DNA of 61,674 bases. Origin: an uncultured delta proteobacterium (GTDB lineage: Bacteria; Desulfobacterota; RBG-13-43-22). This document shows, piece by piece, positions 1 through 38,130 of this stretch. The notes below the pieces were generated by a model. The model made no database searches and was not told the DNA's origin. It worked only from the letters and a program-made list of their open reading frames with translations. Each line of letters starts with the position of its first letter. The stretch's first letter is position 1. A program made the position numbers and the translations under genes. The stretch spans positions 1 through 61,674 of the forward strand of contig CAWJJC010000004.1 of assembly GCA_963843145.1 (NCBI GenBank). The letters are read 5' to 3'.

Positions 1-175
1 ACGGACGACGGATGACGGATGACGGATGACGGATGACGGAAGACAGATAAAGACCGGACGACGAAAGACCGGATGACGGATGACATAAGACCTGATGACG
101 GACGACTTAAGACCGGATGGCAGACGACGAAAGACCGGATGACGGATGACGGATGACAGATGACGGATAAAAACC
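1..175. repeat. Heptamer repeat tract (GACGGAT/GACAGAT with AAAGACC punctuation), purine-rich on +
   Basis: Directly visible; runs off the window edge. Confidence 0.95.
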
Positions 176-192
176 AACTGTACTTGGCCTTC

Positions 193-429
193 TTATATAT
201 TCGCTCCCGCGAACCAATGATAGTCTTTCTGCAACTCCTTCAAACTGACTAACTTATTCCCGGCTTCTTTATCCCCTTTGGCCCCCTCGCCCCTCCGGTT
301 TACATAGCGGACAAACCATTCATCTTCTTTGTGCTTTAAATACTAAACAAAATCGATGACTTCTTTAATCTTCCCCTCCGGCAGACCGCGGATATCGTCC
401 ATAAGCCTTTGTTTTAAAGAGAACGCCAT
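193..429 (-). pseudogene. DUF2281-like antitoxin with in-frame TAG at 343-345
   Basis: AGGAGG RBS, then MAFSLKQRLMDDIRGLPEGKIKEVIDFV*YLKHKEDE...; resembles the 58998-59237 protein. Confidence 0.6.
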
Positions 430-454
430 GGCTTAATCCTCCTTAAAGAAGTTA

Positions 455-628
455 TTAGGACAGTCTCTTAATTATCCGTTTGGCAAGTTCATCCTCTATC
501 TCAGTATGTCTCGCTATGGGCTGACTTACGCCGGACTGAGGATTTCTATACCAATCGTGATTTCCGCCATGCCGCACAAGCACACAGCCGTTTTCTCTTA
601 TAATTCTGAGCAATTCTTTTCTTTTCAA
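455..628 (-). CDS. hicA: HicA-family toxin (57 aa, not in ORF track)
   Basis: TTG start overlapping the hicB stop; MKRKELLRIIRENGCVLVRHGGNHDWYRNP...RHTEI. Confidence 0.85.
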   Translation of the reverse strand: MKRKELLRIIRENGCVLVRHGGNHDWYRNPQSGVSQPIARHTEIEDELAKRIIKRLS

Positions 629-816
629 ACCGCAACTTCCATTAACTGGAAAGGTTCAGCGTCCGGGACCAAGCCTTTATTAATGTCATTATAGATCTCT
701 ATTAGATTTTCTCTCAATTCGTCCAAGGATTTACCCTGGCTTTCATAATCCGGATATTCTTGGATATGGCCGATGTACCAGCCGCTTTTCTTTTTATAAA
801 AGATGTTGAATTCCAT
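625..816 (-). CDS. hicB: HicB-family antitoxin
   Basis: GWYIGHIQEYPDYESQGKSLDELRENL HicB pattern; GGAGG RBS. Confidence 0.85.
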   Translation of the reverse strand: MEFNIFYKKKSGWYIGHIQEYPDYESQGKSLDELRENLIEIYNDINKGLVPDAEPFQLMEVAV

Positions 817-958
817 GGTTCCCTCCTAAATTATGTCCTTGATCGGTAAATTCTGGGTCGGACCCAATGTCGTTAACTTAACAGGAACAGTCTGTTATTG
901 CTATCTTTAATTGTTTCGTATGGTAATCTTATTAGGGGCCGCTGGTACTTTTGTTACC

Positions 959-1077
959 TTATGTGGCTATATCTTTCAAGTCCACATACTGGTCAAGGAC
1001 TTCTTTTCCGCGATCCGCACAACGCCCAACATTTACCCGACTAATGCCTAACGACCGTCCCACCTCGGATGCATTAT
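959..1077 (-). pseudogene. Orphan 3' end, probably the C-terminal HTH of a REP-associated/IS200-like tyrosine transposase
   Basis: ASEVGRSLGISRVNVGRCADRGKEVL...*; upstream part replaced by repeat tract. Confidence 0.45.
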
Positions 1078-1225
1078 TGACAGACGACAGATGACGAATA
1101 AAGACCAGATGACAGACGACAGATGACAGATTAAAACCAGATGACGGATGACAGAGGACATAAGACCTGATGACGGACGACGAAAGACCAGAGGACAGAT
1201 GACGGAAGACAGATGACAGAAAGAA
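1078..1225. repeat. Heptamer repeat tract
   Basis: GACAGAT/GACGGAT units with AAAGACC. Confidence 0.95.
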
Positions 1226-1229
1226 CAAA

Positions 1230-1271
1230 TCATCTTGAAAAGTGCCGGCGAAAGGAGGAGTGTTTGTTGAT
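1230..1271 (-). pseudogene. Orphan 3' end of a four-helix-bundle gene
   Basis: Translates INKHSSFRRHFSR*, versus INKPSSFCRQFSK* in the intact copies. Confidence 0.8.
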
Positions 1272-1301
1272 CTGCGCATAGCTCATGGCAAATAACGCCA
1301 G

Positions 1302-1418
1302 TTAGGCTGCCCCCGACCCTCTTAGGGCCGCAGGTATTGTCAATATGAGAATCTTGAGATCCAGCCAGAATGACCATTGATCAATATATTGCATGTCCAT
1401 TTTCATCCATTCGGAGAA
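1302..1418 (-). pseudogene. Diverged duplicate of the last 38 codons of the sugar transferase
   Basis: FSEWMKMDMQYIDQWSFWLDLKILILTIPAALRGSGAA*, versus FSEWMKLDMQYIDEWSFWLDVKILILTIPAALKGSGAV*. Confidence 0.9.
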
Positions 1419-1455
1419 AGACCAGATGACGGATGACAGACGACGGAGGACGGAA
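1417..1455. repeat. Short heptamer tract starting with AAAGACC
   Basis: aaagaccagatgacggatgacagacgacggaggacgga. Confidence 0.9.
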
Positions 1456-1499
1456 AAAGAACGGGGGACTCTGTGTAAAAAAAATAAGAAATCATGAGG

Positions 1500-2937
1500 T
1501 TAGACGGCTCCCGACCCTTTTAGGGCCGCGGGGATTGTTAATATTAGAATTTTCACGTCTAACCAGAACGACCATTCGTCGATATACTGCATATCAAGCT
1601 TCATCCATTCGGAGAAGGAGACGTTGCTGCGGCCATTGACTTGCCAGAGGCAGGTCATGCCGGGTTTAACGCTGAAGCGGCGGCGGTGCCAGTCGCGGTC
1701 GAAGCCGTTGTAGTCCCGGATGGGGAGGGGGCGCGGGCCGACGAGGCTCATCTCCCCCTTTAAGCACGTTGATCAACTGGGGAAGCTCATCGATGCTGGT
1801 CTTCCGCAGGAATTTGCCGATGCCGGTGATCCGGGGATCGTTTTTGATCTTGAAGGCCGGGCCGTCCACCTCGTTCAGCCCCTCCAGGGCCGCTATTTTC
1901 GCCTCCGCGTCAGCCACCATGGTCCGGAACTTATACAGCCGGAAGACCCGCTTGTGGAGCCCGACCCGGTCCTGGATGAAAAAGACGGGTCCCGGGGAGG
2001 TGATTTTAATCAGGAGGGCCACGACCAAAAAAGGTAGGGATAAGAGAACCAGCAGGATCAGCGAAGCGATGAAATCCATCCCGTACTTGACCAGCAGGGG
2101 GAGCCCTTCCATCCGCCCGGTGGAAACGGTGATAAAGCCCCCTTCGTCGAACTCCTCCGGTTTGATCCGGCCCAGCTTCAAGTTAAAGATGTCCGACAGA
2201 AAGCGGACCATGATGCCCTGCTTCTCGCAGTCAGAGACGATCTGGGAAATCTGCTGGTAATAGGACTTGATGGGCAGGCAGATCGCCACTTCGTCGATGA
2301 CCGCGGTCCGGAGCAGGGCCGGCAGGCTGTTGAAGTCGGCCACCAGGCGGTGGCCCGATTTTTCGAAACCTTTCATACCCTGGTCTTCATCCACAAAGCC
2401 CATGACCAGGTAACCGAACTCCGGTTTCCTCAAGATCCGGTCCACCATCCGCAGGGCCCGGCTGTTGGTGCCGACGATGAGGATGTTCCGCAGGTTCCGT
2501 CCCCGGGTCCGAATCTTTTCCAGGACCTTTTTCAGTACCAGGCGGGAGGCCGTCGTCCCGGCGGTAACGGTGCCCCAGAAAACAACCAGGAATAGCCCGT
2601 TGATCAGCCGGATATTGAAAACCAGAGCCACCACCCAGAGCAGGGAAGTCCCCATGGTGACGGCCTTGAGGATCTGCAGCATATCTTCCGGGAGGGAGGT
2701 CAGCCGCCGGGAATGGTAGAGCTTGAAAAATACAAAAAGGCCATGCCAGGCCAACAGGAAGACCAGGAAGATCATTAGGTTGGAGACCTTGATCCGCATG
2801 GACAGCACCTGTCCGAAAGTGACCCCCTTCATTTCGTGGGAGGTGACCCAGGTGGCGAAAAGGAAATAGCCGACCAGGGCGGCCAGGTCGAATAGCTTGA
2901 GGGCATCGAGGAGGATTTTACGGCGGAAAGGGACCAT
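1500..2937 (-). CDS. Polyprenyl glycosylphosphotransferase (WcaJ/GumD/WbaP family), apparent +1 frameshift in C5 run at 1754-1758
   Basis: N-terminal TM helices, FRLYKFRTM, DPRIT, SIDELPQL; MSLVGPRP and KPGMT continue in the next frame. True start MVPFRR; the upstream ORF extension is translated repeat. Confidence 0.9.
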
Positions 2938-2945
2938 GGTTATAG

Positions 2946-3350
2946 CAGATGACGGAGGACAGAGAAAGACCGGATGACGGACGACCGGAGGACAGAGGAC
3001 GGAGAAAGACTGGATGACAGATGACGGAGGACAGGAGGACGGAGAAAGACAGCTGGATGACAGATGACGGAGGACGGAGGACGGAGAAAGACTGGATGAC
3101 AGATGACGGAGGACGGAGGACGGAGAAAGACTGGATGACAGATGACGGAGGACGGAGGACGGAGAAAGACTGGATGACAGATGACGGAGGACGGAGGACG
3201 GAGAAAGACTGGATGACAGATGACGGAGGACGGAGGACGGAGAAAGACTGGATGACAGATGACGGAGGACGGAGAACGGCAAAGACCAAAGAACAGAAGG
3301 CAGAGAAAGACCGGAGGACGGAGGACAGATGACGGATGACAGATAACAGA
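2946..3350. repeat. Heptamer tract containing about 7 tandem copies of a 39-bp unit GGAGAAAGACTGGATGACAGATGACGGAGGACGGAGGAC (3001-3277)
   Basis: Directly visible; no unique spacers; the same unit occurs once near 6402. Confidence 0.95.
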
Positions 3351-3353
3351 ATA

Positions 3354-3416
3354 TCATTTTGAAAAGTTCCGGCAGAAGGAGGAGGGTTTGTCGATCATAG
3401 TGCCGAGCATGCGGCC
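3354..3416 (-). pseudogene. Orphan 3' end of a four-helix-bundle gene
   Basis: GRMLGTMIDKPSSFCRNFSK*; downstream flank AGATAACAGAATA(TCA) matches that of the 6466 copy. Confidence 0.9.
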
Positions 3417-3460
3417 AAAGACCGGATGACAGATGACGGACGACAGATGGCAGAAAAGAC
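3417..3460. repeat. Heptamer tract, inverted complement of about 3886-3930
   Basis: Its reverse complement gtcttttctgccatctgtcgtccgtcatctgtcatccggtcttt closely matches gtctttttctgccatctgtcatctgttatccgtcatccggccttt. Confidence 0.9.
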
Positions 3461-3463
3461 GGG

Positions 3464-3853
3464 TCATTTTGAGAATTGGCGACAGAAGGAGGAGGGTTTG
3501 TTAATCATGGTGCCGAGCATGCGGCCGATTTCTCGGCATTTTTCGAGGAGGCCGGCGTGAATCTCCGGTTTGATGTATTTGCAGTTCAAGGCGGTATCCA
3601 GCCAGTGCTGGGTTTCAGCCTGTTCGGCGTCCGAATCGCTCAGCTTGCTGACAAAATGAGCTTCATACCGTCTTTTCTGCCAGGCCTCTGCCAAATTTGC
3701 CCCGATGGCCCGGGTTGACCGCCTGATCTGATCCGTTAGAGAGAACATTTCTTCTTTTGGAAAGGCCTTGGAAATTTCAAAAATTTCCTGTTGCAGCTCA
3801 AAGGCTGCCTGATAGACCCGTAAATCCCTATAGCTCTTAATCTGCTCCGTCAT
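3464..3853 (-). CDS. Four-helix-bundle protein (23S rRNA-IVP / bAvd-like family)
   Basis: SYRDLRVYQ, FPKEEMFSLTDQIRRS, NLAEAW, ETQHWL family motifs. Confidence 0.92.
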   Translation of the reverse strand: MTEQIKSYRDLRVYQAAFELQQEIFEISKAFPKEEMFSLTDQIRRSTRAIGANLAEAWQKRRYEAHFVSKLSDSDAEQAETQHWLDTALNCKYIKPEIHAGLLEKCREIGRMLGTMINKPSSFCRQFSK

Positions 3854-3961
3854 CTGTTATCTGTCATCTGGTCTTTCGTCTTCTGGTCTTTTTCTGCCAT
3901 CTGTCATCTGTTATCCGTCATCCGGCCTTTATCCGTCCTCCGGTCTTTCGTCATCCGTCAT
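3850..3961. repeat. Heptamer tract, pyrimidine-rich on + (inverted relative to the tracts 3' of the gene)
   Basis: catctgtcatctggtctttcgtc...; supplies the ATG ACG GAG start of the gene. Confidence 0.95.
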
Positions 3962-4819
3962 CTAAAGTCTTTTATAAATAATCTTTGGAATATAAAACTT
4001 CCTCTTATTGAAGACCACCCCCAGGATATTCCCCCCGTTCTTCTGGATCTGCTCTTTGGCCCTTTCGGCTACCGGACCCCGGGTGCGCTCGGCTTCCAGG
4101 ACCAGGACGACGCCTTCCGCCCGGCGGCAGAAGGCCAGGCCGGCCGCGGAGGTCGATAGGGGCGGGGAATCGATCACCACCAGGTCGAATTGCTCTTTCA
4201 GGCGCTCCCAGACCGAAGCCCGGTCTTCGGATTCCAGGAAGTGGATCAGGGATCCCTCCTCCCGGGCCACCAGGCCGACGGCCAAGCCGGTTTCCTTAGA
4301 CTGGGCAAAGGCCTTATCGACCTCCTCCCCCCGGAGGACCGTTTCTTCCAGGCTGACCATCCGGCCTCCGCCGGAAAAAGGCTGAAAGGAGTCGGCCGGG
4401 TCTCCCTCCAGGAAAAGCACCTTTTTCCCCAGCCGGGAGGCCGAGAACCGGGCGAAGTCCCGGGCTATGGTGGAAGTGCCCTCCCCCGGGTGAGAACCGA
4501 TAAACTGGATGATCTTTTTCCGGGACTGGCCCACGAGAGCCTCGATATTCTGGTACAGCGTGGCCATCTCTTTCTCCGCCTCGAGTTCCAGGGTCAGGGG
4601 AAGGAACGTTTCCTCCGGGAAGGCTGCCGGGACCGGTGCCGCTTCCGGGGGGGCCGGGGCCGGGACCGGCTTGAACATTGATAGGATTTGGGGGTCTTCG
4701 CGCTTCGGGATCGACGCCGCTCCCGGGGGGGCAGGGACCGCCTCCCGTACTCCGACCACGACCTCGAGGTTATTCCGGGTTTTTTTGGCTTCCTGAAGGG
4801 CCTGATAAATTTTACCCAT
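3962..4819 (-). CDS. CpsD/CapB-type BY-kinase-like protein (Wzc C-terminal domain), degenerate Walker A
   Basis: GSHPGEGTST, VVIDSPP, ILGVVFN; EPS operon context. Confidence 0.85.
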   Translation of the reverse strand: MGKIYQALQEAKKTRNNLEVVVGVREAVPAPPGAASIPKREDPQILSMFKPVPAPAPPEAAPVPAAFPEETFLPLTLELEAEKEMATLYQNIEALVGQSRKKIIQFIGSHPGEGTSTIARDFARFSASRLGKKVLFLEGDPADSFQPFSGGGRMVSLEETVLRGEEVDKAFAQSKETGLAVGLVAREEGSLIHFLESEDRASVWERLKEQFDLVVIDSPPLSTSAAGLAFCRRAEGVVLVLEAERTRGPVAERAKEQIQKNGGNILGVVFNKRKFYIPKIIYKRL

Positions 4820-4913
4820 AAAATCTCCTAAATTAGCTCATTGCTCTTAGTAAATACTAATATCACCGCTCGCTTCGCTCAAGGCGCAAAGATCGCAAAG
4901 ATTTATTTATGTT

Positions 4914-6368
4914 TCATCCTTCTCCCTTTTTCGCCATCTTCTTCCATTCCGGGAAGACTATCTTCTGCCCGACTATGATCTTCAGGTCTTCCTTGATCCG
5001 CGGGTTGCGCTTCCGGACCAGGCCCCACAATTCCGGGTTGCTGGCGCCGTAGACTTCCAGGATCATGCGGTAGAGGTTCTCTCCTTTCCGGACCTTCCGG
5101 GTGAAGGGGAACCCGGGTGCAGGCTGCTCTTCGGCGGCGGCCGGCTGTTGTTCCGGGGACGGGGCGACCTCCACCTTTCGTTTAGAGGGAATGACCGGGT
5201 TTTCTTTTTCGGGCGTCGGTTTTTTTTCGGTGGCCACCGGTTCTTTTCCCTGGTTGCCCGGGGTCGGGGTTTCCAGTCCGCGGGAGGCCTCGGTTTTCCC
5301 AAGGGCCAGCCCTTTCGGGACCGCGAGGTTCATGACTTCCCCCTCTCTGACCGACTGAATCCCGATGGCCGGCAGGGGATCCTCCTGGAGCGGAACCTTC
5401 ACGGCGGCGGCCTGATCCGCCCGGTCCTTCTCCCGCAGGATAATGGAGACCTTGGGGCCCGAGTCTGACTGCTGATAATAGATGGACACCCCCAATACCA
5501 CCAGGCCGACCAGCAGGGCGGCCTGGGAAGCCGGGACCCAGCGGCGGAAAAACGATTTCTTGCGACCCTCCAGGTCGGCCGAAACCTCATTGACCACCTT
5601 GACGGAAATGGGTTTCCGGAGATAGCCGAACCCGGTCACCAGGGCATTGTCGGCCAGGATGTTGAGGGCTCGGGGAATCCCCCTGGCCCGGCGGACGATC
5701 ATTTCCAGTGCCCGGGGGGTAAAAATGTCTTCCGCTCGCCCACCGGCCTTTTCCAGCCGGAACCGGAGGTATTCCCGGCTTTCCTTCCGGGTCAACGGGG
5801 ACAGGACGGCCTGGACGGCGATCCGCTGCTTGAGCTGGCGCAGCTCATAGCGGTCGAGCTTGGCGGTCAGTTCGGGCTGGCCCACCAGCACGATCTGGAG
5901 CAGCTTATCGGTGGGGGTCTCCAGGTTGGAGATCTGCCTGAGCCCCTCCAGGGTCTCCACCGGCAGGCCCTGGGCCTCGTCGATCAGGAGGACGACCGTG
6001 TTCCCCTGGGCGTATTCCCGGATCAGGGCCTGGTAAATACGATCCAGGAGCGCTTCGGGTTCCTCGTAGGCCGCCTCCAAGTCCAGCTCCCGGGCCAAGG
6101 CCCGGAGCAGTCCGGCGTAGGAAAAGCGGCTATTGAAGAGATAGATGACCTTTTCTTTGACCCCAAGCCGCTCCTGCAAGAAGGCCTGCAGCAGAGTCGT
6201 CTTCCCCAGGCCCACCTCGCCCACCAGGGCCATGAACCCCTTGCCCTGCTCCACCGCGTAGATGATGGTTGCCAGAGCCTCCCGGTGGCTGGGGCTCAGG
6301 TACAGGAATTCCGGGTCGGGTGTGATCCGGAAGGGCTCGGTCTTGAGATTATAAAACTCAAGGTACAT
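4914..6368 (-). CDS. ExeA/GspA-family AAA ATPase with TM helix and C-terminal LysM-like domain
   Basis: PFRITPDPEFLY, GEVGLGKT, LLIDEAQ, GIPRALN. Confidence 0.88.
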   Translation of the reverse strand: MYLEFYNLKTEPFRITPDPEFLYLSPSHREALATIIYAVEQGKGFMALVGEVGLGKTTLLQAFLQERLGVKEKVIYLFNSRFSYAGLLRALARELDLEAAYEEPEALLDRIYQALIREYAQGNTVVLLIDEAQGLPVETLEGLRQISNLETPTDKLLQIVLVGQPELTAKLDRYELRQLKQRIAVQAVLSPLTRKESREYLRFRLEKAGGRAEDIFTPRALEMIVRRARGIPRALNILADNALVTGFGYLRKPISVKVVNEVSADLEGRKKSFFRRWVPASQAALLVGLVVLGVSIYYQQSDSGPKVSIILREKDRADQAAAVKVPLQEDPLPAIGIQSVREGEVMNLAVPKGLALGKTEASRGLETPTPGNQGKEPVATEKKPTPEKENPVIPSKRKVEVAPSPEQQPAAAEEQPAPGFPFTRKVRKGENLYRMILEVYGASNPELWGLVRKRNPRIKEDLKIIVGQKIVFPEWKKMAKKGEG

Positions 6369-6380
6369 GGGTTAGCTCAT

Positions 6381-6462
6381 AGAGACCAGAGGACGGAGGA
6401 CGGAGAAAGACTGGATGACAGATGACGGAGGACAGAGACGGAGACAGATAACAGATAACAGA
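6381..6462. repeat. Heptamer tract 3' of four-helix-bundle copy 2
   Basis: Purine-rich on +. Confidence 0.95.
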
Positions 6463-6465
6463 ATA

Positions 6466-6855
6466 TCATTTTGAGAATTGGCGACAAAAAGATGAGGGTT
6501 TGTTGATCATGGTGCCGAGCATTCGGCCGATCTCTTGGCATCTTTCAAGAAGGCCGGCATGAACTTCCGGCTTGATATACTTACAATTCAGGGCCGTGTC
6601 CAGCCAGTGTTGGGTTTCGGCCTGTTCAGCGTCCGAATCGCTCAGTTTGCTGACAAAATGCGCTTCATAACGTCTTTTTTGCCAGGCCTCTGCCAAATTT
6701 GCCCCGAGGGCCCTCGATGAACGCCGGATCTGATCCGTCAAAGAGAACATTTCTTCTTTTGGAAAGGACTTGGAAACTTCGAAAATTTCCTGCTGCAAGT
6801 CAAAGGCTGCCTGATAAACCCTCAAATCCCTATAGCTTTTGATCTGTTCCGTCAT
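6466..6855 (-). CDS. Four-helix-bundle protein, paralog of 3464-3853
   Basis: 8 differences in 129 aa; many synonymous DNA changes. Confidence 0.92.
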   Translation of the reverse strand: MTEQIKSYRDLRVYQAAFDLQQEIFEVSKSFPKEEMFSLTDQIRRSSRALGANLAEAWQKRRYEAHFVSKLSDSDAEQAETQHWLDTALNCKYIKPEVHAGLLERCQEIGRMLGTMINKPSSFCRQFSK

Positions 6856-7058
6856 CTGTCATCTGTCTTCTGTCATCTGGTCTTTCGTCATCTGGTCTTT
6901 TGTCATCTGGTCTTTCGTCATCTGGTCTTCTGTCATCTGGTCTGTTCGTCATCTGGTCTTCTGTCATCTGGTCTTTCGTCATCTGGTCTTTCGTCATCCG
7001 GTCTTTCGTTCCGTCATCTGCCATCTGTCATCTGTCGTCTGGTCTTTACCGTCATCCG
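6850..7058. repeat. Heptamer tract with about 8-9 copies of a 15-bp unit TCTTTCGTCATCTGG
   Basis: Pyrimidine-rich on +; overlaps the gene start. Confidence 0.95.
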
Positions 7059-7071
7059 AGTTTTAACCTCG

Positions 7072-8538
7072 TCACTCTTTAAGCGGTATGGTTACCAGAA
7101 CCGGCAGCCCCAAGCGCTGCTCCACGCTGTCCGGGGTGGTGAAGCGCTGACTGGTGTATTCGGACAAGAAGGCGAAACCCAGGCCGGAGACGGCGCCCAG
7201 GATGATGCTCAGCAGGATGTTCAAGGCCTTTTTAGGCTTGATGGGCTTGGAGGGGACCACGGCGGCCTGGATGACGCTGATGTTGGCCAGCTTCTGACGG
7301 TTCATCTCGTCGGAGATCCGGGCCTCCTCCTTCTTTTCCAGGTAGGTCCGGTAATTCTTGTCGTTGGTGCTGACCTCCCGCTTCAGTCCCTGGAGGTCCT
7401 TTTCCTGGAGGTCCAGGGTCTTGATCTCACCGTCCAACTGGGCGATCTGCGTCTGCAGGGTGGCGGCCTTGGCCCGCATGGAGGCCTCCTCGGCCTCGGC
7501 CGTTACGGCCTCCTTTTCCGCCCCCTGGTAGACCGGGTTGGCAGTTTTCACCTTGCCGCCGATGGCCTCCTCCTGCTCCTTGAGGAAATCCTTGACGATC
7601 TGGATCTCCTTACGGACATTGACCAGGAGCCGGTTGTTGTCCGGATACTTGGAGGAGAGGTCCTGCTCGCTCAACTGCAGGGTGAGGAGCTTGGCCCGGG
7701 CCTCGACGATGATCTTGTCCCGCTCGGTCAGGGTGTAGAGGTGCGGGTCGGACAGGATGCCTTTCATCTGGCCCCTCAGGGAGCCGAGCTTCTTGCTTAG
7801 TTCATCGATCCGGTTCCGAGTGCTTTTGAGCGAGGTGTCCAGATCGGTCCGCTGTTTCAGGAGCAGGCTCCGCTGCTCGTCCAGGGAATAGACCCGGTTC
7901 TTCTGCCGGAAGGCCTCCAGGCGGTTTTCCGAGTTCTTCAGCTCCTTATCGTACAGGTCGGTCTGATTCTCCATAAAATTCGATTCCGTCCCGCTGTGGA
8001 CCGCCAGGTGCTTCTCCTTGAAGAAGTCCACCAGCAGGTTGACCGCCCGGGCGGCCACCTGGGGATCTTTGTGCTGAAAAGAGACCTCGATGACGCTGGA
8101 CTTCTTGACCCCCTCGACCGTCAGCTTCTTCTGAAAGATGCTCACCGCGGCTTCCAGGGGCGTCATCCGGGAAGGGGGATTGGCCACCAGGTCAGGGTAG
8201 ATGTTTTCCAGTTTCATGGTCTTGATCACCCGCTCGACGAGGTCCCGGCTGGTGAGGATGTTGATCTCCGAGTTGATGGCCTCTTCCTGGTTGAAGGCGA
8301 TCATGGGGGTCTTGTCCCCCACCTCGGGCCGGTACATGAACTCCCGCCCGAATTTGATCAGCAGGCTGGACTCGGCTTCGTAGGTGGGCGCCATCAGGAA
8401 GGAGCCCACGGTCACCGTGACGACCGTGGCCAGGAAGATGGTCAGGATGGCGACCTTCCGCTTGAAGAGGATAGCCAGGAAATCGCGCAGGCTACCGCCC
8501 GACGACTCCGGATTACTTTGGTAAGTCGTTGTTTCCAT
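7072..8538 (-). CDS. Polysaccharide co-polymerase (GumC/Wzc N-terminal)
   Basis: Two TM segments, coiled coil, PTYEAESSLL, PSKPIKP, LGLPVL. Confidence 0.9.
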   Translation of the reverse strand: METTTYQSNPESSGGSLRDFLAILFKRKVAILTIFLATVVTVTVGSFLMAPTYEAESSLLIKFGREFMYRPEVGDKTPMIAFNQEEAINSEINILTSRDLVERVIKTMKLENIYPDLVANPPSRMTPLEAAVSIFQKKLTVEGVKKSSVIEVSFQHKDPQVAARAVNLLVDFFKEKHLAVHSGTESNFMENQTDLYDKELKNSENRLEAFRQKNRVYSLDEQRSLLLKQRTDLDTSLKSTRNRIDELSKKLGSLRGQMKGILSDPHLYTLTERDKIIVEARAKLLTLQLSEQDLSSKYPDNNRLLVNVRKEIQIVKDFLKEQEEAIGGKVKTANPVYQGAEKEAVTAEAEEASMRAKAATLQTQIAQLDGEIKTLDLQEKDLQGLKREVSTNDKNYRTYLEKKEEARISDEMNRQKLANISVIQAAVVPSKPIKPKKALNILLSIILGAVSGLGFAFLSEYTSQRFTTPDSVEQRLGLPVLVTIPLKE

Positions 8539-8784
8539 TGGTGCTCCTTAAACTGCAAATACAGGGTTCAAGGGTCTTCGGCGGGCTCAGCCGAGTCGTT
8601 CGAGGGGTCGAGGATTCAAGTGAAAGACCTCAATAGGTATGACTGTCAAGGGGTGGCTAACTTTCTCCTTATAAACCCTCGACCCCTTCTTTTTCGCCAT
8701 GAGCTAAATCCCCGCGGCCCTGAAAGGCCCAGGTGCTGTCTAACTTCATGATTTGTTCCATTTTTTACAATGAGTCACCGGATC

Positions 8785-8892
8785 TTTTTCCGTCATCCGT
8801 CATCCGGTCTTTATCCGTCATCTGCCATCTGTCATCCGTCATCTGTCATCTGCCATCCGTCATCCGGTCTTTATCCGTCATCCGGTCTTTCC
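8785..8892. repeat. Heptamer tract between wza and the co-polymerase, ending in a four-helix-bundle-like start
   Basis: Minus strand ends ATGACGGAAAAAGATC, compare ATGACGGAACAGATC of copy 2; no ORF follows. Confidence 0.85.
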
Positions 8893-8911
8893 CCTCGAAC
8901 CCTTCTTTTCC

Positions 8912-9601
8912 CTACTGCGCCAAATTATAATAAAACCCGGAGCCAATCGGGATATTCTTCCGGATATACTGGTCCACCCACAAATTGACGTTGGCGATGG
9001 GGGACTTGGGGACATAGACGATGTCCGCCGGCAACAGCGGGATGTCCTGGGACGGGTCGCTGCCGTCGATCGCCTTTTCCACGTTGACCAGCATCGAGGC
9101 CGGGCGGTTATCCGGACCCCGGCGGACGATGATGATCTCGTTGACCCGGGCCGAGTCTTTCATCCCCCCGGCCGAGGCCAGGGACTGGAGAAGCGTCATC
9201 GGCCCGTTCAAGGGGACCAGGCCGGGTTTGGCCACTTCGCCGTCCACATACACCTTCTGGGCGGTGAAGGACCGGACGATGACGGCGATCTCCGGCTGGC
9301 TGATCTGGGGCGCGTATTTATCCCGGAGTTGCTGGCGCAGTTCTTCCGGGGTCAGGCCCGAGGCCTGGACCTCGTGGACCAATTGCAGGGAAATCCGCCC
9401 GTCCGGCCGGACAATCACCGACTCGTTCAACTCGGGGTGGTAGAAGAGCTTGATGTCCAAGGCATCACCCACCTGGATCTGGTAATCCCGCGGCGGGTCA
9501 GGCCGGGCGTTTAGCGCTCCCGACGTTTTGACCGCCGCCGCGCAGGAGGTGAACTGCAGAAAAATACCGAGTATCCAGAGCAGAACAAAGATCTTTTTCA
9601 T
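8912..9601 (-). CDS. wza: Polysaccharide export protein (short Wza/OPX lipoprotein)
   Basis: YQIQVGD, VRPDGRISL, VYVDGEV, DIVYVP. Confidence 0.9.
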   Translation of the reverse strand: MKKIFVLLWILGIFLQFTSCAAAVKTSGALNARPDPPRDYQIQVGDALDIKLFYHPELNESVIVRPDGRISLQLVHEVQASGLTPEELRQQLRDKYAPQISQPEIAVIVRSFTAQKVYVDGEVAKPGLVPLNGPMTLLQSLASAGGMKDSARVNEIIIVRRGPDNRPASMLVNVEKAIDGSDPSQDIPLLPADIVYVPKSPIANVNLWVDQYIRKNIPIGSGFYYNLAQ

Positions 9602-9799
9602 GCGTTGTCCTTTACTTTAGAAATGAGGAATTCTTAGATAATACCCTGATGCCCTCTATTTTCGCCATGGTCTGTGGGATGACCTGCCATGGGCCATAAC
9701 TTGTCAGGCTTATAGACTAATCGAACAAATAAATATTATACTTTAATATTTCTTGTTAATTCAATAAAAATCTTAGGCTTATCCCTACCTGGCCAATAA

Positions 9800-10158
9800 C
9801 GACAGAGAACGGATAAAGAACTGAGGACAGAGGACGGAGGACAGAGGACGGAGGACGGAGGACGGAGGACGGAGGACGGAGGACGGAGGACGGAGGACGG
9901 AGGACGGAGGACAGGAGGACGGAGGACGGAGGACGGAGGACGGAGGACGGAGGACGGAGGACGGAGGACAGAGGACGGAGGACAGAGGACGGAGGACAGA
10001 GGACGGAGGACAGAGGACAGAGGACAGAGGACGGAGGACGGAGGGCAGAGGACAGAGGACGGAGGACGGAGGACGGAGGACGGAGGACAGAGGACGGAGG
10101 ACGGAGGACGGAGGACGGAGGACGGAGGACGGAGGACAGAGGACGGAGGACAGACAGA
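9800..10158. repeat. Long, almost pure GACGGAG/GACAGAG heptamer tract
   Basis: More than 40 units; + strand lacks T over most of the tract. Confidence 0.97.
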
Positions 10159-10342
10159 AATCGGGGCCTCAGAATTCATCGGTCCCTGTTTGTAAATTAT
10201 TCTATTAAAGTGCCTTTATATTCGTCCGATAATAAAAAAGCGAAGCCCTTAGAGGAAGAAAATAAAAAGGGTAGCCGGTAAAGGGTTGCCTTTTGGCACT
10301 CTTTAGGCTACCTTCTTATAAATTTTTGATCTGGGAGGTTAT

Positions 10343-11059
10343 ATGAAAAGATTCATTATCGGGTTGATCACTTTATCGGCTGTTCTTTCCTTTGGCTTGG
10401 CCGAGGCTCAGGATAAGCCCCGCCTCGGGGTGCTGCGGTTCACCAACCAGACCCATGCCGGCTGGTGGCGGGGGAACATGGGCTACGACCTCCAGGACAT
10501 GCTGGTGAATGAACTGGCCTCCACCAAGGCCTTTCAGGTGCTGGAACGGAAAGAGATCAATGCCGTCATCGGAGAGCAGGATCTGGGGGCTTCCGGGCGG
10601 ATCGATCCCCGGACCAGGGCCAAGATCGGTAAGATTAAGGGAGCCAAATATCTGGTGGCAGCCACCGTGTCCGCTTACGAGGAGGACACCAAGGGCACCG
10701 GCGGTGGGATCGGCATCATGGGTTTTCGGGTAGGAGGAAAACAGGAAAAGGCCTATATGGCCGTGGACCTGAAAATAATCGACACCGATACCGGGGAAAT
10801 CGCCGACAGCCGGACCGTGGAGGCCACCTCGGAGTCCAGCGGATTCACCCTGGGGGCACACCTCGGTATCTTATCCGGCGACCTGGGGAAATACGAGAAA
10901 ACCCCTGCGGGCAAAGCGATCCGAGCCTGCATCATCGAAATTTCGGATTATCTGGTCTGCTCGCTGACCAAGGGAAAAAATGATCCCTGCCTGGACGCCT
11001 ACAACCAGAAGGAGTCCAACCGACGGGAAAAGACCAAGGATTCGATCAAATTGGAGTAA
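10343..11059 (+). CDS. CsgG/HfaB-family exported protein
   Basis: Signal peptide; FQVLERKEINAVIGEQ, AKIGKIKGAKYL, VDLKIIDTDTGEI. Confidence 0.85.
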   Translation: MKRFIIGLITLSAVLSFGLAEAQDKPRLGVLRFTNQTHAGWWRGNMGYDLQDMLVNELASTKAFQVLERKEINAVIGEQDLGASGRIDPRTRAKIGKIKGAKYLVAATVSAYEEDTKGTGGGIGIMGFRVGGKQEKAYMAVDLKIIDTDTGEIADSRTVEATSESSGFTLGAHLGILSGDLGKYEKTPAGKAIRACIIEISDYLVCSLTKGKNDPCLDAYNQKESNRREKTKDSIKLE

Positions 11060-36223: not shown

Positions 36224-38130
36224 AACGCTGGATTCCCATAGCCCTGGCCTTGCTGTCCTTCCTTTTTATAAGTACCGGGCGGCCCTTGACGACCGGATCC
36301 GGCTGTCTCTCCTGCCACCAGGGGATCGAATCTCCGGGGAAAGAGCACCAATTTCCCTGCGGGCGGTGCCACGGGGGAGACGCCAAGGCCGACAGCAAAA
36401 AAGGCGCCCATCAGGGCTTGATACCCAACCCTTCCTCCCTGGATCAGGCCCCGCAACGCTGCGGCCCCTGCCATCGGGACCAGGTCCGGCGGGTTCGAGG
36501 CTCCCTGATGGCCACCTCGGCCGGGGAAATCAATCCGACCCGGTATCTTTGGGGAGCCCAGCCCAAGGGGCGGAAACCCTATTTGAATCACCCCCTGGAG
36601 GGCTACGCGGGGATCCCTGATCCCGAACAAAGCCGCCAAGGGGTTGATGACCTCCTCCGTCGCCGCTGCCTGCGCTGTCACTTGAATACCCGGGGGTTGG
36701 GCCGCTACGGAGACTGGCGGGCCGAAGGGTGCGCCGCCTGCCACCTGCCCTATGGGCCGGATGGCCTCAGCCAGAGCCGGGACCGGGCCGTCCAGTCCCT
36801 GATGAATGAAATCCGTCAGGGAAAACGGCCTCAGCCTAGGGGGTATCCCCTGAAGCACCAGTTTTCCCGGACCATCCCGACCACCCAATGCCTGACCTGT
36901 CACAACGGCCATCGCGTAGGCATGGATTATGTCGGCCTGGCGGAGCGGGATTACGAAGCCAGCTACCGCTTCAATGCCCTGGACGGCGAATCCCCTTCCC
37001 TGATCTACGGTTTCGACCCCCGCCGGATGCCTCCCGATATTCACCATGAGCGGGGCTTAGGCTGCATCGATTGCCACAACGGTCGAGAGGTCATGGGGCA
37101 CGGAGGGGTGGCTCGGCAGTCAGGAGATCAGACAACTATCCGCTGTCAGGATTGTCACGGCACACCCGACAGCGGACCGAAAACGAAAAAGACCCTATCT
37201 GCGGCAGGGGGAAAGGGAGGAAGCGGCGGGGAGATAGTGGTGGATTCCGGGGGGCAGCCTTTGTCCCACATACGCCGGGAAGCGAATGAAACGATCCTGA
37301 TCTCCAAGTTGACCGGGCAGCGACATCGGATTCCCACCCTGAACGACCCGACCATCCCGGTGGAGCACCGCATCCCCGAGCATATCCAAAAAATGGAATG
37401 CCATAGTTGCCACGCCTTTTGGAGCTACCAGGATTTTGGCTTTCATTTAATCCGGGAGGAGCGGACCGATTATCAGAAATGGGCCGCTCTCTGGATGCAA
37501 AACGATCCCCAGGTCCAAGCCTTGTTGCAGCGCAACCTGCCGCTGAAACCGGAACAGCGGACCGCCCCCCAAGCCAGAGACTTCATCGACCATTCCCTTC
37601 GGCCGGGCATCTGGTTTGCCGGATACTCTTACCGACGCCTGGAATCTCCCATCTACGGCCTCAACCCCAGAGGCCTGACCAGCGTTTTTCGCCCTTTCCA
37701 ACAGTATGTGGTCAGTCAGGTGGATGCCGCCGGGAAGGTCCTGATGGACAGCCGAATTATGCGAACCCGGGATGGGAAGCCCGGCTTGGGTTTTAACCCC
37801 TACGCCCCCCATACCATTCGCCGGGCCACCCGTCCCTGCGAAGCCTGCCACTTGAATCCCCGAGCCATCGGACTGGGGAACCGAATCGCACCGGCTAAGA
37901 ACGGTAAAGAAAATAAATGGTCCCTCCCGCTGACCTTCCCCCGAAAGGACGGCGTGCCCATCGATTTTGAGTGGGAGGCGCTGGTCGACCCGGACGGAAA
38001 ACCCTTACAGACCCAGACCCGAGCCGGCGCCCGGCCCTATAATCAACGGGAGATCAAAGGACTGCTGACGAAATCCAAGGCCTATAAAGGCTGGTACACC
38101 CGGTATTACCAGGAGAAGGGTCTGTATTGA
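36220..38130 (+). CDS. Multiheme cytochrome c (10 CxxCH), paralog of the upstream gene
   Basis: Signal peptide; colinear motifs (PDIH, RCQDCHGT, GLGN). Confidence 0.9.
   Translation: MKRWIPIALALLSFLFISTGRPLTTGSGCLSCHQGIESPGKEHQFPCGRCHGGDAKADSKKGAHQGLIPNPSSLDQAPQRCGPCHRDQVRRVRGSLMATSAGEINPTRYLWGAQPKGRKPYLNHPLEGYAGIPDPEQSRQGVDDLLRRRCLRCHLNTRGLGRYGDWRAEGCAACHLPYGPDGLSQSRDRAVQSLMNEIRQGKRPQPRGYPLKHQFSRTIPTTQCLTCHNGHRVGMDYVGLAERDYEASYRFNALDGESPSLIYGFDPRRMPPDIHHERGLGCIDCHNGREVMGHGGVARQSGDQTTIRCQDCHGTPDSGPKTKKTLSAAGGKGGSGGEIVVDSGGQPLSHIRREANETILISKLTGQRHRIPTLNDPTIPVEHRIPEHIQKMECHSCHAFWSYQDFGFHLIREERTDYQKWAALWMQNDPQVQALLQRNLPLKPEQRTAPQARDFIDHSLRPGIWFAGYSYRRLESPIYGLNPRGLTSVFRPFQQYVVSQVDAAGKVLMDSRIMRTRDGKPGLGFNPYAPHTIRRATRPCEACHLNPRAIGLGNRIAPAKNGKENKWSLPLTFPRKDGVPIDFEWEALVDPDGKPLQTQTRAGARPYNQREIKGLLTKSKAYKGWYTRYYQEKGLY

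Follow-up and report, generated by a model that had tools for sequence, protein, structure and literature searches.

What do tandem heptamers do between the genes of a polysaccharide export operon, and how are they related to two genes for a small four-helix-bundle protein that lie among them? These questions are raised by the first ten kilobases of the window, the whole 61,674-nucleotide stretch of DNA analysed here, which comes from an uncultured delta proteobacterium. A sequence-only reading of this stretch had proposed a repeat-flanked cassette that inserts between operon genes. Our analysis makes it probable that the tracts are the arms, the tandemly multiplied arms and the orphaned arms or remnants of one subfamily of cassettes of the intervening-sequence (IVS) type. 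With similar confidence we describe this cassette as a 129-aa four-helix-bundle ORF placed between two inverted arrays of GACRGAK heptamers.

Heptamer tracts of the export operon

About ten tracts of GACRGAK heptamers lie between the genes of the EPS export operon at positions 1-10159, as had been claimed, and their coordinates were mapped across 1-10151. The 5.35-Mb genome contains 16 clusters of the motif, defined as at least three GAC[AG]GAN within 30 nt, and 13 lie at positions 7-10159 of this contig (C4). None was found elsewhere in the window, in agreement with the claim that this repeat grammar is confined to the operon. The tract region also holds 25 of the 54 genome-wide occurrences of GATGACGGA; AAAGACC by itself is non-specific, with 11 of 813 genome occurrences in this region.

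The operon, like all ORFs and gene remnants described for this region, is encoded on the minus strand. On its 5' side lies GAGGACG repeated 46.9 times (9823-10151, 93% matches), which exceeds every other period-7 array of the genome in length. A single promoter-like site was found, TTGAAT-18-TATAAT (9735-9764, minus strand); it lies between this array and the gene of a Poly_export/SLBB outer-membrane polysaccharide export protein (8912-9601), and similar hexamers, read by eye, stand at the matching place in the relatives G003 and G001. The feature at 8707-8890 combines a gene-less purine-sense tract (8774-8890) with the transferase 3' end and spacer, copied in inverted orientation (8707-8804). 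The Wzz/GNVR chain-length determinant (7072-8538) is followed by the 5' arm of cassette 2, expanded as ten copies of a 15-nt unit (6858-7060), four-helix-bundle gene 2 (6466-6855) and the 3' arm (6381-6462), which stops 13 nt before the start codon of an ExeA-like AAA_22 ATPase (4914-6368; best match TIGR03015, under its cut-off). Downstream of a ParA-like or tyrosine-autokinase-like EPS protein (3962-4819), four-helix-bundle gene 1 (3464-3853) lies between the 5' arm (3849-3962) and the 3' arm (3417-3460) of cassette 1, the second of which adjoins 63 nt left over from the 3' end of a four-helix-bundle gene, stop codon included (3354-3416). Then comes a long tract (2941-3350) made of a 39-nt higher-order unit repeated 8.5 times (94% matches) and of heptamers; about 10 nt beyond its end is the start codon of a polyprenyl glycosylphosphotransferase (Bac_transf/TIGR03025-like, 1500-2937). 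This transferase is in two frames, split near 1666-1751; its counterpart in G003 is an intact ORF of 478 aa.

Beyond the transferase are a short tract directly 3' of it (1415-1460), a remnant copy of its 3' end (1301-1421, 80% identical to 1499-1619), another four-helix-bundle gene 3' end with its stop codon (1228-1290) and a heptamer tract with AAAGACC punctuation (1078-1220). A 63-aa ORF without family match (625-816) overlaps a HicA toxin ORF (455-628), toxin-antitoxin cargo located between two tracts, and the contig itself starts within a heptamer tract that is pyrimidine-rich in operon sense (1-168). A 98-nt, 82% inverted repeat (1439-1536, partner 8707-8804) brackets the 7.2-kb block from wzz to the transferase, and its arm at 1439-1536 includes unique sequence, namely the sugar-transferase 3' end and the spacer. 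Arms in the operon measure 44-410 nt, with higher-order units of 15 and 39 nt; the 39-nt unit, about 5.5 heptamers, is found in the window and in congeners.

Two statements on the placement of the tracts hold in part. Nearly every operon junction had been said to be occupied, and the tracts are real, but the exeA/kinase junction (4820-4913) has none. The tracts had also been tied to the four-helix-bundle genes; six of the ten do adjoin such a gene or a remnant, whereas four (1-168, 1415-1460, 8774-8890 and 9823-10151) adjoin neither.

The cassette in the genome and across phyla

Both four-helix-bundle proteins score above the curated cut-offs of PF05635 (108.1 and 106.6 bits, cut-off 33.8) and TIGR02436 (99.8 and 98.8 bits, cut-off 24). 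The family includes ORFs of RNase III-excised 23S rRNA IVSs and is related to the DGR accessory protein Avd; PF22296 was matched with 43-47 bits. The 5' flank of each gene is a purine-sense array and the 3' flank its complement, just as had been read from the letters, and the start ATG ACG GAR is indeed part of a repeat unit; the 5' arm of cassette 1 (3849-3962) contains the start codon. The inverted repeat of this cassette had been called near-perfect, which is too strong, since over 46 nt its arms (3412-3457 with 3890-3935) show 85% complementarity, within a range of 75-89% for arm complementarity. Folding of cassettes 1 and 2 was predicted to place the ORF in the loop, with MFEs of -197.3 and -219.4 kcal/mol (z -5.1 and -4.0), and no shuffled sequence folded as well (0/100 and 0/20). 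The two genes show 48 nucleotide differences over 390 nt and 8 amino-acid differences over 129 aa (dS 0.82, dN 0.027, dN/dS 0.03). Both intact genes are under strong purifying selection, as had been read from the letters. The full-length cassette contains no transposase, the four-helix bundle being its sole ORF.

Period-7 arrays number 629 in this genome and form 109 inverted pairs within 1.5 kb, versus 31 direct pairs. Spacers shorter than 150 nt make 76 of the 109 inverted pairs gene-less hairpins; among the 14 pairs with spacers of 250-560 nt, 11 enclose a PF05635 match, covering six distinct genes. Gene-less deletion derivatives of the cassette exist, as short hairpins of the GAACATC family keep pieces of the ORF 5' end in a deletion series.

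Arms counted as complementary when they exceeded the 99th percentile of a set of 1500 random sites. By this measure, 12 of the 17 PF05635 matches of the genome are enclosed by inverted short-period arrays, which belong to differing families. Complementary arms were found in relatives at 19 of 28 loci, a count that becomes 17 of 26 when the two of this window are set aside, and at 57 of 80 loci from named genomes of several phyla. Flanking by inverted short-period tracts extends well beyond this operon. The predicted orientation bias was found as well: the core GAC[AGT]GA, counted when present in at least two copies, lies upstream in sense at 54 of the 80 loci and downstream as complement at 44, versus 2 and 3 loci in the wrong orientation. 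This core was found at 47 of 49 loci with at least 65% identity and at 1 of 11 with 50-59%, and relatives of the protein in at least three phyla have GACNGA arms oriented as here. These comparisons show that this heptamer accompanies the protein subfamily of the window, and that the architecture seen genome-wide also occurs in other phyla.

Residence and turnover in related genomes

The cassettes of this operon are old residents and not recent insertions: in two congeners, and in a sister genus as well, the wzz/exeA junction is likewise occupied by this heptamer family and a four-helix-bundle gene. Neither a target-site duplication nor a clean empty-site allele of the operon was found among the four genomes compared, whose junctions are not alignable outside the arrays. 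Together with the conservation of the junctions across the genus and a sister genus, this would make mobility here historical at best. The notion of a repeat-flanked cassette inserting between operon genes therefore stands as regards a recurring cassette and fails as regards recent insertion here, the junctions being shared with relatives. In this Thermodesulfobacteriota lineage, the cassettes have long been resident between genes of a PEP-CTERM-like EPS export operon. These genomes differ in array length, in gene integrity and in the neighbouring toxin-antitoxin cargo, and from one close relative to the next the arrays, with what they contain, turn over by slippage of units, duplication of whole arms (39 nt), deletion and recombination.

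Decay is part of this picture, and the cassettes and arms might be selfish or neutral debris that persists and expands in a tolerant, recombination-prone glycan locus while doing nothing for the operon. Decayed gene copies are common (one interrupted by a TGA in G001, one truncated in G007, and in G003 a second copy with an internal deletion), remnants lie in the window, and the hairpin families found at a given junction are unrelated from one relative to another. The dN/dS of 0.03 of both intact genes speaks against debris, as do the conservation of the wzz/exeA four-helix-bundle gene (95% in G003, 80-96% over the remaining parts in G007), which equals or exceeds that of its neighbours, and the presence of five PF05635 matches of the genome in two paralogous EPS loci. 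We judge this reading unlikely.

The window also has a trait of contingency loci, a tandem repeat next to a surface-structure gene with a number that varies between species, and slippage could alter promoter spacing while recombination between direct or inverted tracts would delete, duplicate, invert or exchange parts of the operon and its cargo, giving a variable surface polysaccharide. The array upstream of the export gene and its promoter-like site is 46.9 units long in the window, compared with about 15 units in G001 and some 7 in G003, and the toxin-antitoxin genes between same-orientation tracts differ in three congeners (HicA here, PIN in G001, YafQ in G003). The two four-helix-bundle 3' remnants, the direct and inverted copies of the transferase 3' end and the 98-nt inverted repeat around 7.2 kb could be scars of such events, and heptamer repeat-dependent phase variation of a Haemophilus surface adhesin is documented (PMC12721329). 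However, the comparison that showed these differences is one of species and not of members of a population, the duplicated segments share just 78-82% of their sequence and hence are old, no recombinase was found in the region examined, and many arrays lie inside the operon, where their length has no obvious effect on promoter spacing. This DNA-level explanation seems doubtful to us.

A direct role of the protein is more improbable, namely that it recognises the heptamer arrays of its own cassette in RNA or ssDNA form and uses them as platforms for autoregulation, operon control or cassette propagation. It would suit the strict orientation in which subfamily and core co-occur across phyla, as well as the quantised array lengths (4.4 units in 142 and 5.4 units in 25 of the 629 arrays) and the 39-nt unit of about 5.5 heptamers. 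By sequence, the protein, whose solved homologues form pentameric rings, matches PDB entries 2RLD (E 2.8e-9) and 2GSC (E 3.3e-5), with five chains per entry each; a Xanthomonas homologue is described as a homopentamer (PMC4990558), and the related Avd is reported as essential for DGR retrohoming (PMC10053308). Yet co-inheritance of gene and arms accounts for the co-occurrence without any binding, and gene-less hairpins far outnumber genes (76 vs about 12).

Assembly artefacts of low-complexity sequence would explain a contig that starts in a tract, the frameshifted transferase and the error-prone unit counts of long arrays, but they are hardly credible given that the same heptamer family recurs at matching junctions in the G003, G001 and G007 assemblies and flanks homologous genes of 80 named records.

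Likely action and comparison with known systems

If the tracts do derive from the arms of an IVS-type cassette, whole or as remnants, the reading that we prefer, the arms would pair in the polycistronic transcript and form imperfect duplexes of about 45 bp or more. RNase III, the gene of which is present in this genome, would cut these duplexes as in the homologous 23S rRNA intervening sequence, and the cuts would sever the operon RNA where one gene adjoins the next, freeing the four-helix-bundle ORF. By this analogy, the cassettes likely act as RNase III-cleavable stems in the operon transcript. The four-helix-bundle gene is probably translated, since it is kept by selection. Arrays outside the transcript, such as that of 47 units, would probably be orphaned 3' arms enlarged by slippage; as this array lies upstream of a promoter-like site apparently conserved in three genomes, a role in RNA only does not cover it. 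We count against the preferred reading the 75-89% complementarity of the arms, the position of the longest array 5' of the sole promoter-like site, the four tracts without adjoining gene or remnant, the cassette positions shared across the genus and a sister genus with neither a target duplication nor a clean empty site found, and the genome's own 23S gene (C22:352849-355871), in which no period-7 array was found.

Among known systems, Avd belongs to a homologous four-helix-bundle fold family (PMC10053308). Identity with Avd was rejected, as the equivalog model NF033474 gave 46.2 and 45.7 bits, below its cut-off of 80, and contig C4 has no RVT_1 match, all eight of the genome being elsewhere. 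MITEs and REP palindromes likewise occur in many intergenic copies, end in inverted repeats and include short derivatives of a longer form that bears a gene; here, in contrast, the full-length form lacks a transposase, the heptamer arms differ from family to family, and the comparison of junctions yielded no target-site duplication. The GGGAATC inverted heptamer pairs of Xanthomonas and the heptamer repeats of Nostoc, reported at 70-75 convergent pairs per genome (PMC4692102), are also intergenic, often convergent and of lengths that differ between species, but they have other units and hosts, and that paper, whose main text contains neither '23S' nor 'helix bundle', treats G-quadruplexes.

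In Haemophilus influenzae, the (ATCTTTC)n array of hmw1A pairs into a long 5'-UTR hairpin that is cut by RNase III, and the repeat count tunes expression (PMC12721329). This too is a heptamer array by a surface-structure operon; there, however, one array pairs with a G-rich region of the 5'-UTR and encloses no ORF, whereas in the window several junctions within the operon carry inverted arrays in pairs, and at two of them the pair encloses a gene.

The closest parallel is the 23S rRNA IVS, of which ORF-bearing examples are also cited for Leptospira, Xanthomonas and Brucella (PMC4990558). According to the same source, the start of S23p in the Coxiella burnetii IVS is preceded by GACAGAT in tandem, the number of repeats differing between strains, and RNase III cuts in the terminal-inverted-repeat stem, the 5' site being the start of the first repeat. 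An S23p-family ORF in the loop of such a stem and heptamers of this type directly 5' of the start are features shared with the window. Unlike that IVS, the window cassettes lie between protein genes and not in 23S helix 45, their arms are expanded to 44-410 nt and their ORFs are under strong purifying selection; the Coxiella ORF was judged by its authors to be probably untranslated and decaying (PMC4990558), a difference that we also count against our reading. No description of this cassette outside rRNA was found in the literature searched. The operon elements are probably copies and remnants of the hairpin cassette known to interrupt rRNA genes of other bacteria, placed here between ordinary genes and unusually long.

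Heptamer tracts and helix-bundle genes of the EPS operon

The window is the first 61.7 kb of contig C4, which begins within a repeat tract, in a genome of 5.35 Mb and 32 contigs. In a one-genome-per-species scan the nearest named relatives of this genome are metagenome-assembled genomes catalogued under uncultured delta proteobacterium, Desulfobacteraceae and Thermodesulfobacteriota. The EPS export operon lies on the minus strand and encodes a Poly_export/SLBB protein (8912-9601), a Wzz/GNVR protein (7072-8538), an AAA_22 ExeA-like ATPase (4914-6368), a ParA-like kinase (3962-4819) and a Bac_transf sugar transferase (1500-2937). Among NCBIfam models, these proteins match XrtA/PEP-CTERM-system families best, except that the top matches of kinase and transferase are general EPS families; every one of these matches is below its curated cut-off. 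The transferase gene is broken near 1666-1751 into two overlapping frames. One ORF covers positions 1-100 of the Bac_transf profile, and the other covers positions 102-178. Either the frameshift is genuine or it stems from a homopolymer error; the congener G003 has a single intact ORF of 478 aa.

Two ORFs of 129 aa (3464-3853 and 6466-6855, minus strand) were identified by profile search as clear members of PF05635 and TIGR02436, the four-helix-bundle (HB) family. Each is preceded by a purine-sense array and followed by the complementary array, the ATG ACG GAR start being furnished by a repeat unit. In the RNA folds computed for both cassettes, pairing of the arms places the ORF in the loop, and none of 100 and none of 20 shuffled sequences, respectively, folded as well. 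The two genes differ at 48 of 390 bases and at only 8 of 129 residues (dS 0.82, dN/dS 0.03), so the duplication is old and purifying selection on the copies is strong. An earlier, sequence-only reading had proposed the family assignment, the orientation of the arrays, the origin of the start codon, the fold and purifying selection without recent duplication, and all of these stand. It had also described the arms of the first cassette as a near-perfect inverted repeat, for which the measured complementarity is a more modest 85%.

Tandem Repeats Finder and direct reading delineated ten tracts of GACRGAK units with AAAGACC-type punctuation. The genome contains 16 clusters of GACRGAK-type motifs, 13 of them in C4:7-10159 and none in the rest of the window, in agreement with the proposed restriction of this grammar to the operon; by itself, AAAGACC occurs widely in the genome and does not mark a local grammar. 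Nearly every junction had been said to carry a tract, and the ten tracts are indeed present, but the ATPase-kinase junction has none. What distinguishes this locus is array expansion: the five longest period-7 arrays of the genome all lie in this 10-kb stretch, as do six of the ten arrays of at least 60 nt. A 39-nt unit is repeated 8.5 times with 94% matches, and the same 39-nt period occurs in two congeners. This unit may be a whole arm ending in AAAGACC and duplicated in tandem, which would account for the punctuation. A CsgG-family gene (10343-11059) is transcribed divergently from the operon, so that the longest array, of 47 units, lies in a divergent intergenic region. Downstream of this array is a promoter-like TTGAAT-18-TATAAT, and a similar site was found by eye in the congeners G003 and G001.

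When contig depths of two sediment metagenome runs were summed, tract bins (1-347, 8676-9022 and 9717-10063) exceeded the genes by a factor of tens to hundreds, so this heptamer family seems to abound in many of the organisms sampled. Contigs of four DNA runs matched the window only as short pieces, and their alignment carries no weight in the conclusions. Contigs joining tracts in the sediment runs have short sides and probably represent repeats of other organisms. One contig of the X1 DNA run covers 6244-6433 without any difference from the window and may stem from the source sample.

Cassettes in the genome and across phyla

Genome-wide, 629 period-7 arrays were found in 167 strand-insensitive families, and their length is quantised, 142 of the 629 having 4.4 units. 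Array pairs within 1.5 kb are inverted in 109 cases (76 with a spacer below 150 nt) versus direct in 31 (4 with such a spacer). Inverted pairs with spacers of 250-560 nt number 14, and in 11 of them the spacer holds a PF05635 gene, which corresponds to 6 distinct genes. Searching from the protein side gave 17 PF05635 matches, 12 of which were over the cut-off. Flank complementarity exceeded the 99th percentile of 1500 random sites for 12 of the 17, bearing out the suggestion that HB genes lie within inverted short-period tracts throughout the genome; the remaining five comprise a truncated gene and four weak matches inside ORFs longer than 200 aa. The unit differs from cassette to cassette (GGGTAGG, GATGGAA, CGAAATT, CGAACAT, AATTGAT and others), and the two arms vary jointly with complementarity kept. 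Short hairpins of the GAACATC family retain the first codons of the ORF and thus form a deletion series. The window locus is one instance of this genome-wide cassette architecture.

A paralogous EPS operon of the window's own genome, G000 (L115, G000:C19:68000-87000), contains three further PF05635 matches, two full-length and one truncated, with other heptamer arms. Its gene order is Wzz, AAA_22, ParA-like and Bac_transf, followed by sugar-modifying genes, and a 404-aa ORF (L115 16803-18017, minus strand) has a match to the largest subunit of RNA polymerase that is confined to domains 1-2. A gene-less hairpin of the AAATCCG family lies approximately 300 nt from the RNase III gene of the genome (G000:C32:37123-37259 and 37563-37949). 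A search of the genome's own 23S rRNA for an intervening sequence (IVS) found none.

A one-genome-per-species scan with the first HB gene yielded 128 relatives. Eighty of them, with 50-93% identity, were retained; they belong to Thermodesulfobacteriota, Planctomycetota, Verrucomicrobiota and others. Arm complementarity was significant at 57 of these 80 loci. The core GAC[AGT]GA occurred at least twice in sense upstream of 54 loci, and its complement downstream of 44, with the wrong orientation at 2 and 3 loci, respectively. It follows the protein subfamily, being found at 47 of 49 loci with at least 65% identity to the first HB gene versus 1 of 11 with 50-59%. Neighbouring ORFs are co-oriented with the HB gene in 118 of 141 cases; 75 of the 141, at 44 loci, were scanned for families. 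At least 10 of these 44 loci adjoin glycan-synthesis genes, and six Planctomycetota loci among them share an upstream MutS gene.

A tree was built from 71 rows and 127 columns, after 8 of the 80 loci had been set aside for partial or over-long matches and 3 more had dropped out because of internal stops. Phylum labels are clustered on it, with 17 changes against a least possible number of 10 and a shuffled mean of 38.6. Supported branches are few, as are nestings across phyla, for example of Syntrophaceae with WOR-3 and Fermentibacteria (branch lengths 0.04-0.05). These nestings at most suggest horizontal transfer between phyla, mis-binned contigs being possible.

Turnover at the operon junctions

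An HB homologue was detected at an E value of 1e-10 or better in 23 of 41 genomes, the window's own counted, and 17 of 26 loci outside the window have significant arm complementarity, which extends the proposed inverted arms to relatives. Synteny of the EPS operon extends to G003 and G001, of the same genus, and to G007, of a sister genus, with GACRGAK-type heptamers at matching junctions; neither the ATPase nor Wzz found a match in G002, which is also of this genus and approximately 90% complete. The HB gene between Wzz and the ATPase is present in all three syntenic genomes: its identity is 95% in G003 and 44% in G001, where a TGA interrupts it, and the G007 copy is truncated. As for the second copy, between kinase and transferase, residues 33-77 are missing in G003, and in G001 its place is taken by a 3' remnant of the transferase along with other inserts. 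Within this rearranged spacer of G001, 34 T are followed directly by 55 A (L032 12448-12536), possibly an assembly artefact. Upstream of the export gene, the array counts 46.9 units in the window's genome, approximately 15 in G001 and approximately 7 in G003.

At other junctions the hairpin family varies by genome; one such family is built of the 8-mer GGGTTCRA and another of TGAGCTA, and the two are nested in G003. Arrays of GGGTTCRA/CTCGAACC and of TAGCTCA/TGAGCTA occupy operon junctions of the relatives (L031-L033), and the window retains a copy of the former (8560-8700) and a vestige of the latter (4820-4913). This vestige is all that the ATPase-kinase junction holds in the window; G001 has a gene-less GACAGAT-type hairpin there. 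Since the same junctions are occupied with varying contents, the cassettes are long-term residents of the operon whose arrays turn over rapidly. Comparison of the junctions of the four genomes revealed turnover but no alignable filled/empty pair, and no clean empty site or target duplication was found.

Putative action and comparison with known systems

In the 23S rRNA IVS of Coxiella burnetii, terminal inverted repeats make up a stem of 28 bp around the S23p ORF, and two to three tandem GACAGAT units plus GACAGAA, with repeat number varying among strains, precede the start codon; RNase III cuts inside the stem, the 5' processing site being the start of the first repeat (PMC4990558). Because GACAGAT is also a unit of the window tracts and the genome encodes RNase III, the paired arms would most likely let RNase III cut the operon transcript at gene junctions. 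The 47-unit array is left unexplained by this reading, since it lies upstream of the promoter-like site.

DNA-level contingency or recombination in the EPS operon is a live rival for the role of the tracts. Changes in the DNA itself are evident: the window contains two HB 3' remnants as well as a direct and an inverted copy of the transferase 3' end. An inverted repeat of 98 nt (82%; 1439-1536 and 8707-8804), part of which is unique sequence (transferase 3' end and spacer), brackets the 7.2-kb block from wzz to the transferase and is the scar of an inversion or inverted duplication; it was not seen at the corresponding junction of G003 or G001. In the three congeners, the toxin-antitoxin genes that stand between tracts of one orientation, downstream of or beside the transferase, are different ones (HicA at 455-816 of the window, PIN twice in G001 at L032 12919-13365 and 18375-18821, YafQ in G003 at L031 15920-16204), which suggests cargo exchange at the tracts. 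In Haemophilus, phase variation by heptamer repeats has been reported to operate via an RNase III-cut hairpin (PMC12721329). An assembly artefact is rejected because the layout recurs in three other assemblies, and a role of the HB genes as Avd of a diversity-generating retroelement (DGR) is rejected as well, with an equivalog score below the cut-off and no reverse transcriptase on the contig.

Besides RNase III cleavage, we envisage a bolder scheme, which we consider rather unlikely: the HB pentamer would be a sequence-specific reader of tandem heptamers, with about one heptamer per subunit and each subfamily reading its own arms. Gene and arms would then form a self-recognising module spreading between phyla, and the multiplied 39-nt units would be protein-loading platforms setting the processing or expression of the export genes. 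Such a reader would be a new kind of nucleic-acid recognition module, and would provide a function both for the large 23S rRNA IVS protein family and for the heptamer repeats of many bacteria. If the arms are instead cut in mRNA, the cassettes would be a widespread, overlooked means of segmenting operon transcripts. The hyper-expanded arrays and the differences between congeners constitute a natural series bearing on both ideas.

Cyanobacterial STRR repeats are heptamers. TAACTGA repeats occur in Beggiatoaceae (PMC4679880), and inverted heptamer pairs have been described in Xanthomonas in a paper whose main text contains neither '23S' nor 'helix bundle' (PMC4692102). The homology between PF05635 and Avd has been remarked upon in a DGR paper (PMC10053308). 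We found no description of an HB cassette outside rRNA in the literature, as searched with little coverage of subscription journals. New from the window are the expansion of arrays to whole-arm multimers and the variable cargo between tracts, together with four links by which the locus ties the 23S rRNA IVS protein family, outside rRNA, to the intergenic heptamer repeats of several phyla. The cassettes favour polysaccharide operons, here the EPS operon; their ORFs are strongly selected; the same arms accompany one protein subfamily in Thermodesulfobacteriota, Planctomycetota and Verrucomicrobiota; and the heptamer is identical to that of the Coxiella element, which is cut experimentally by RNase III.
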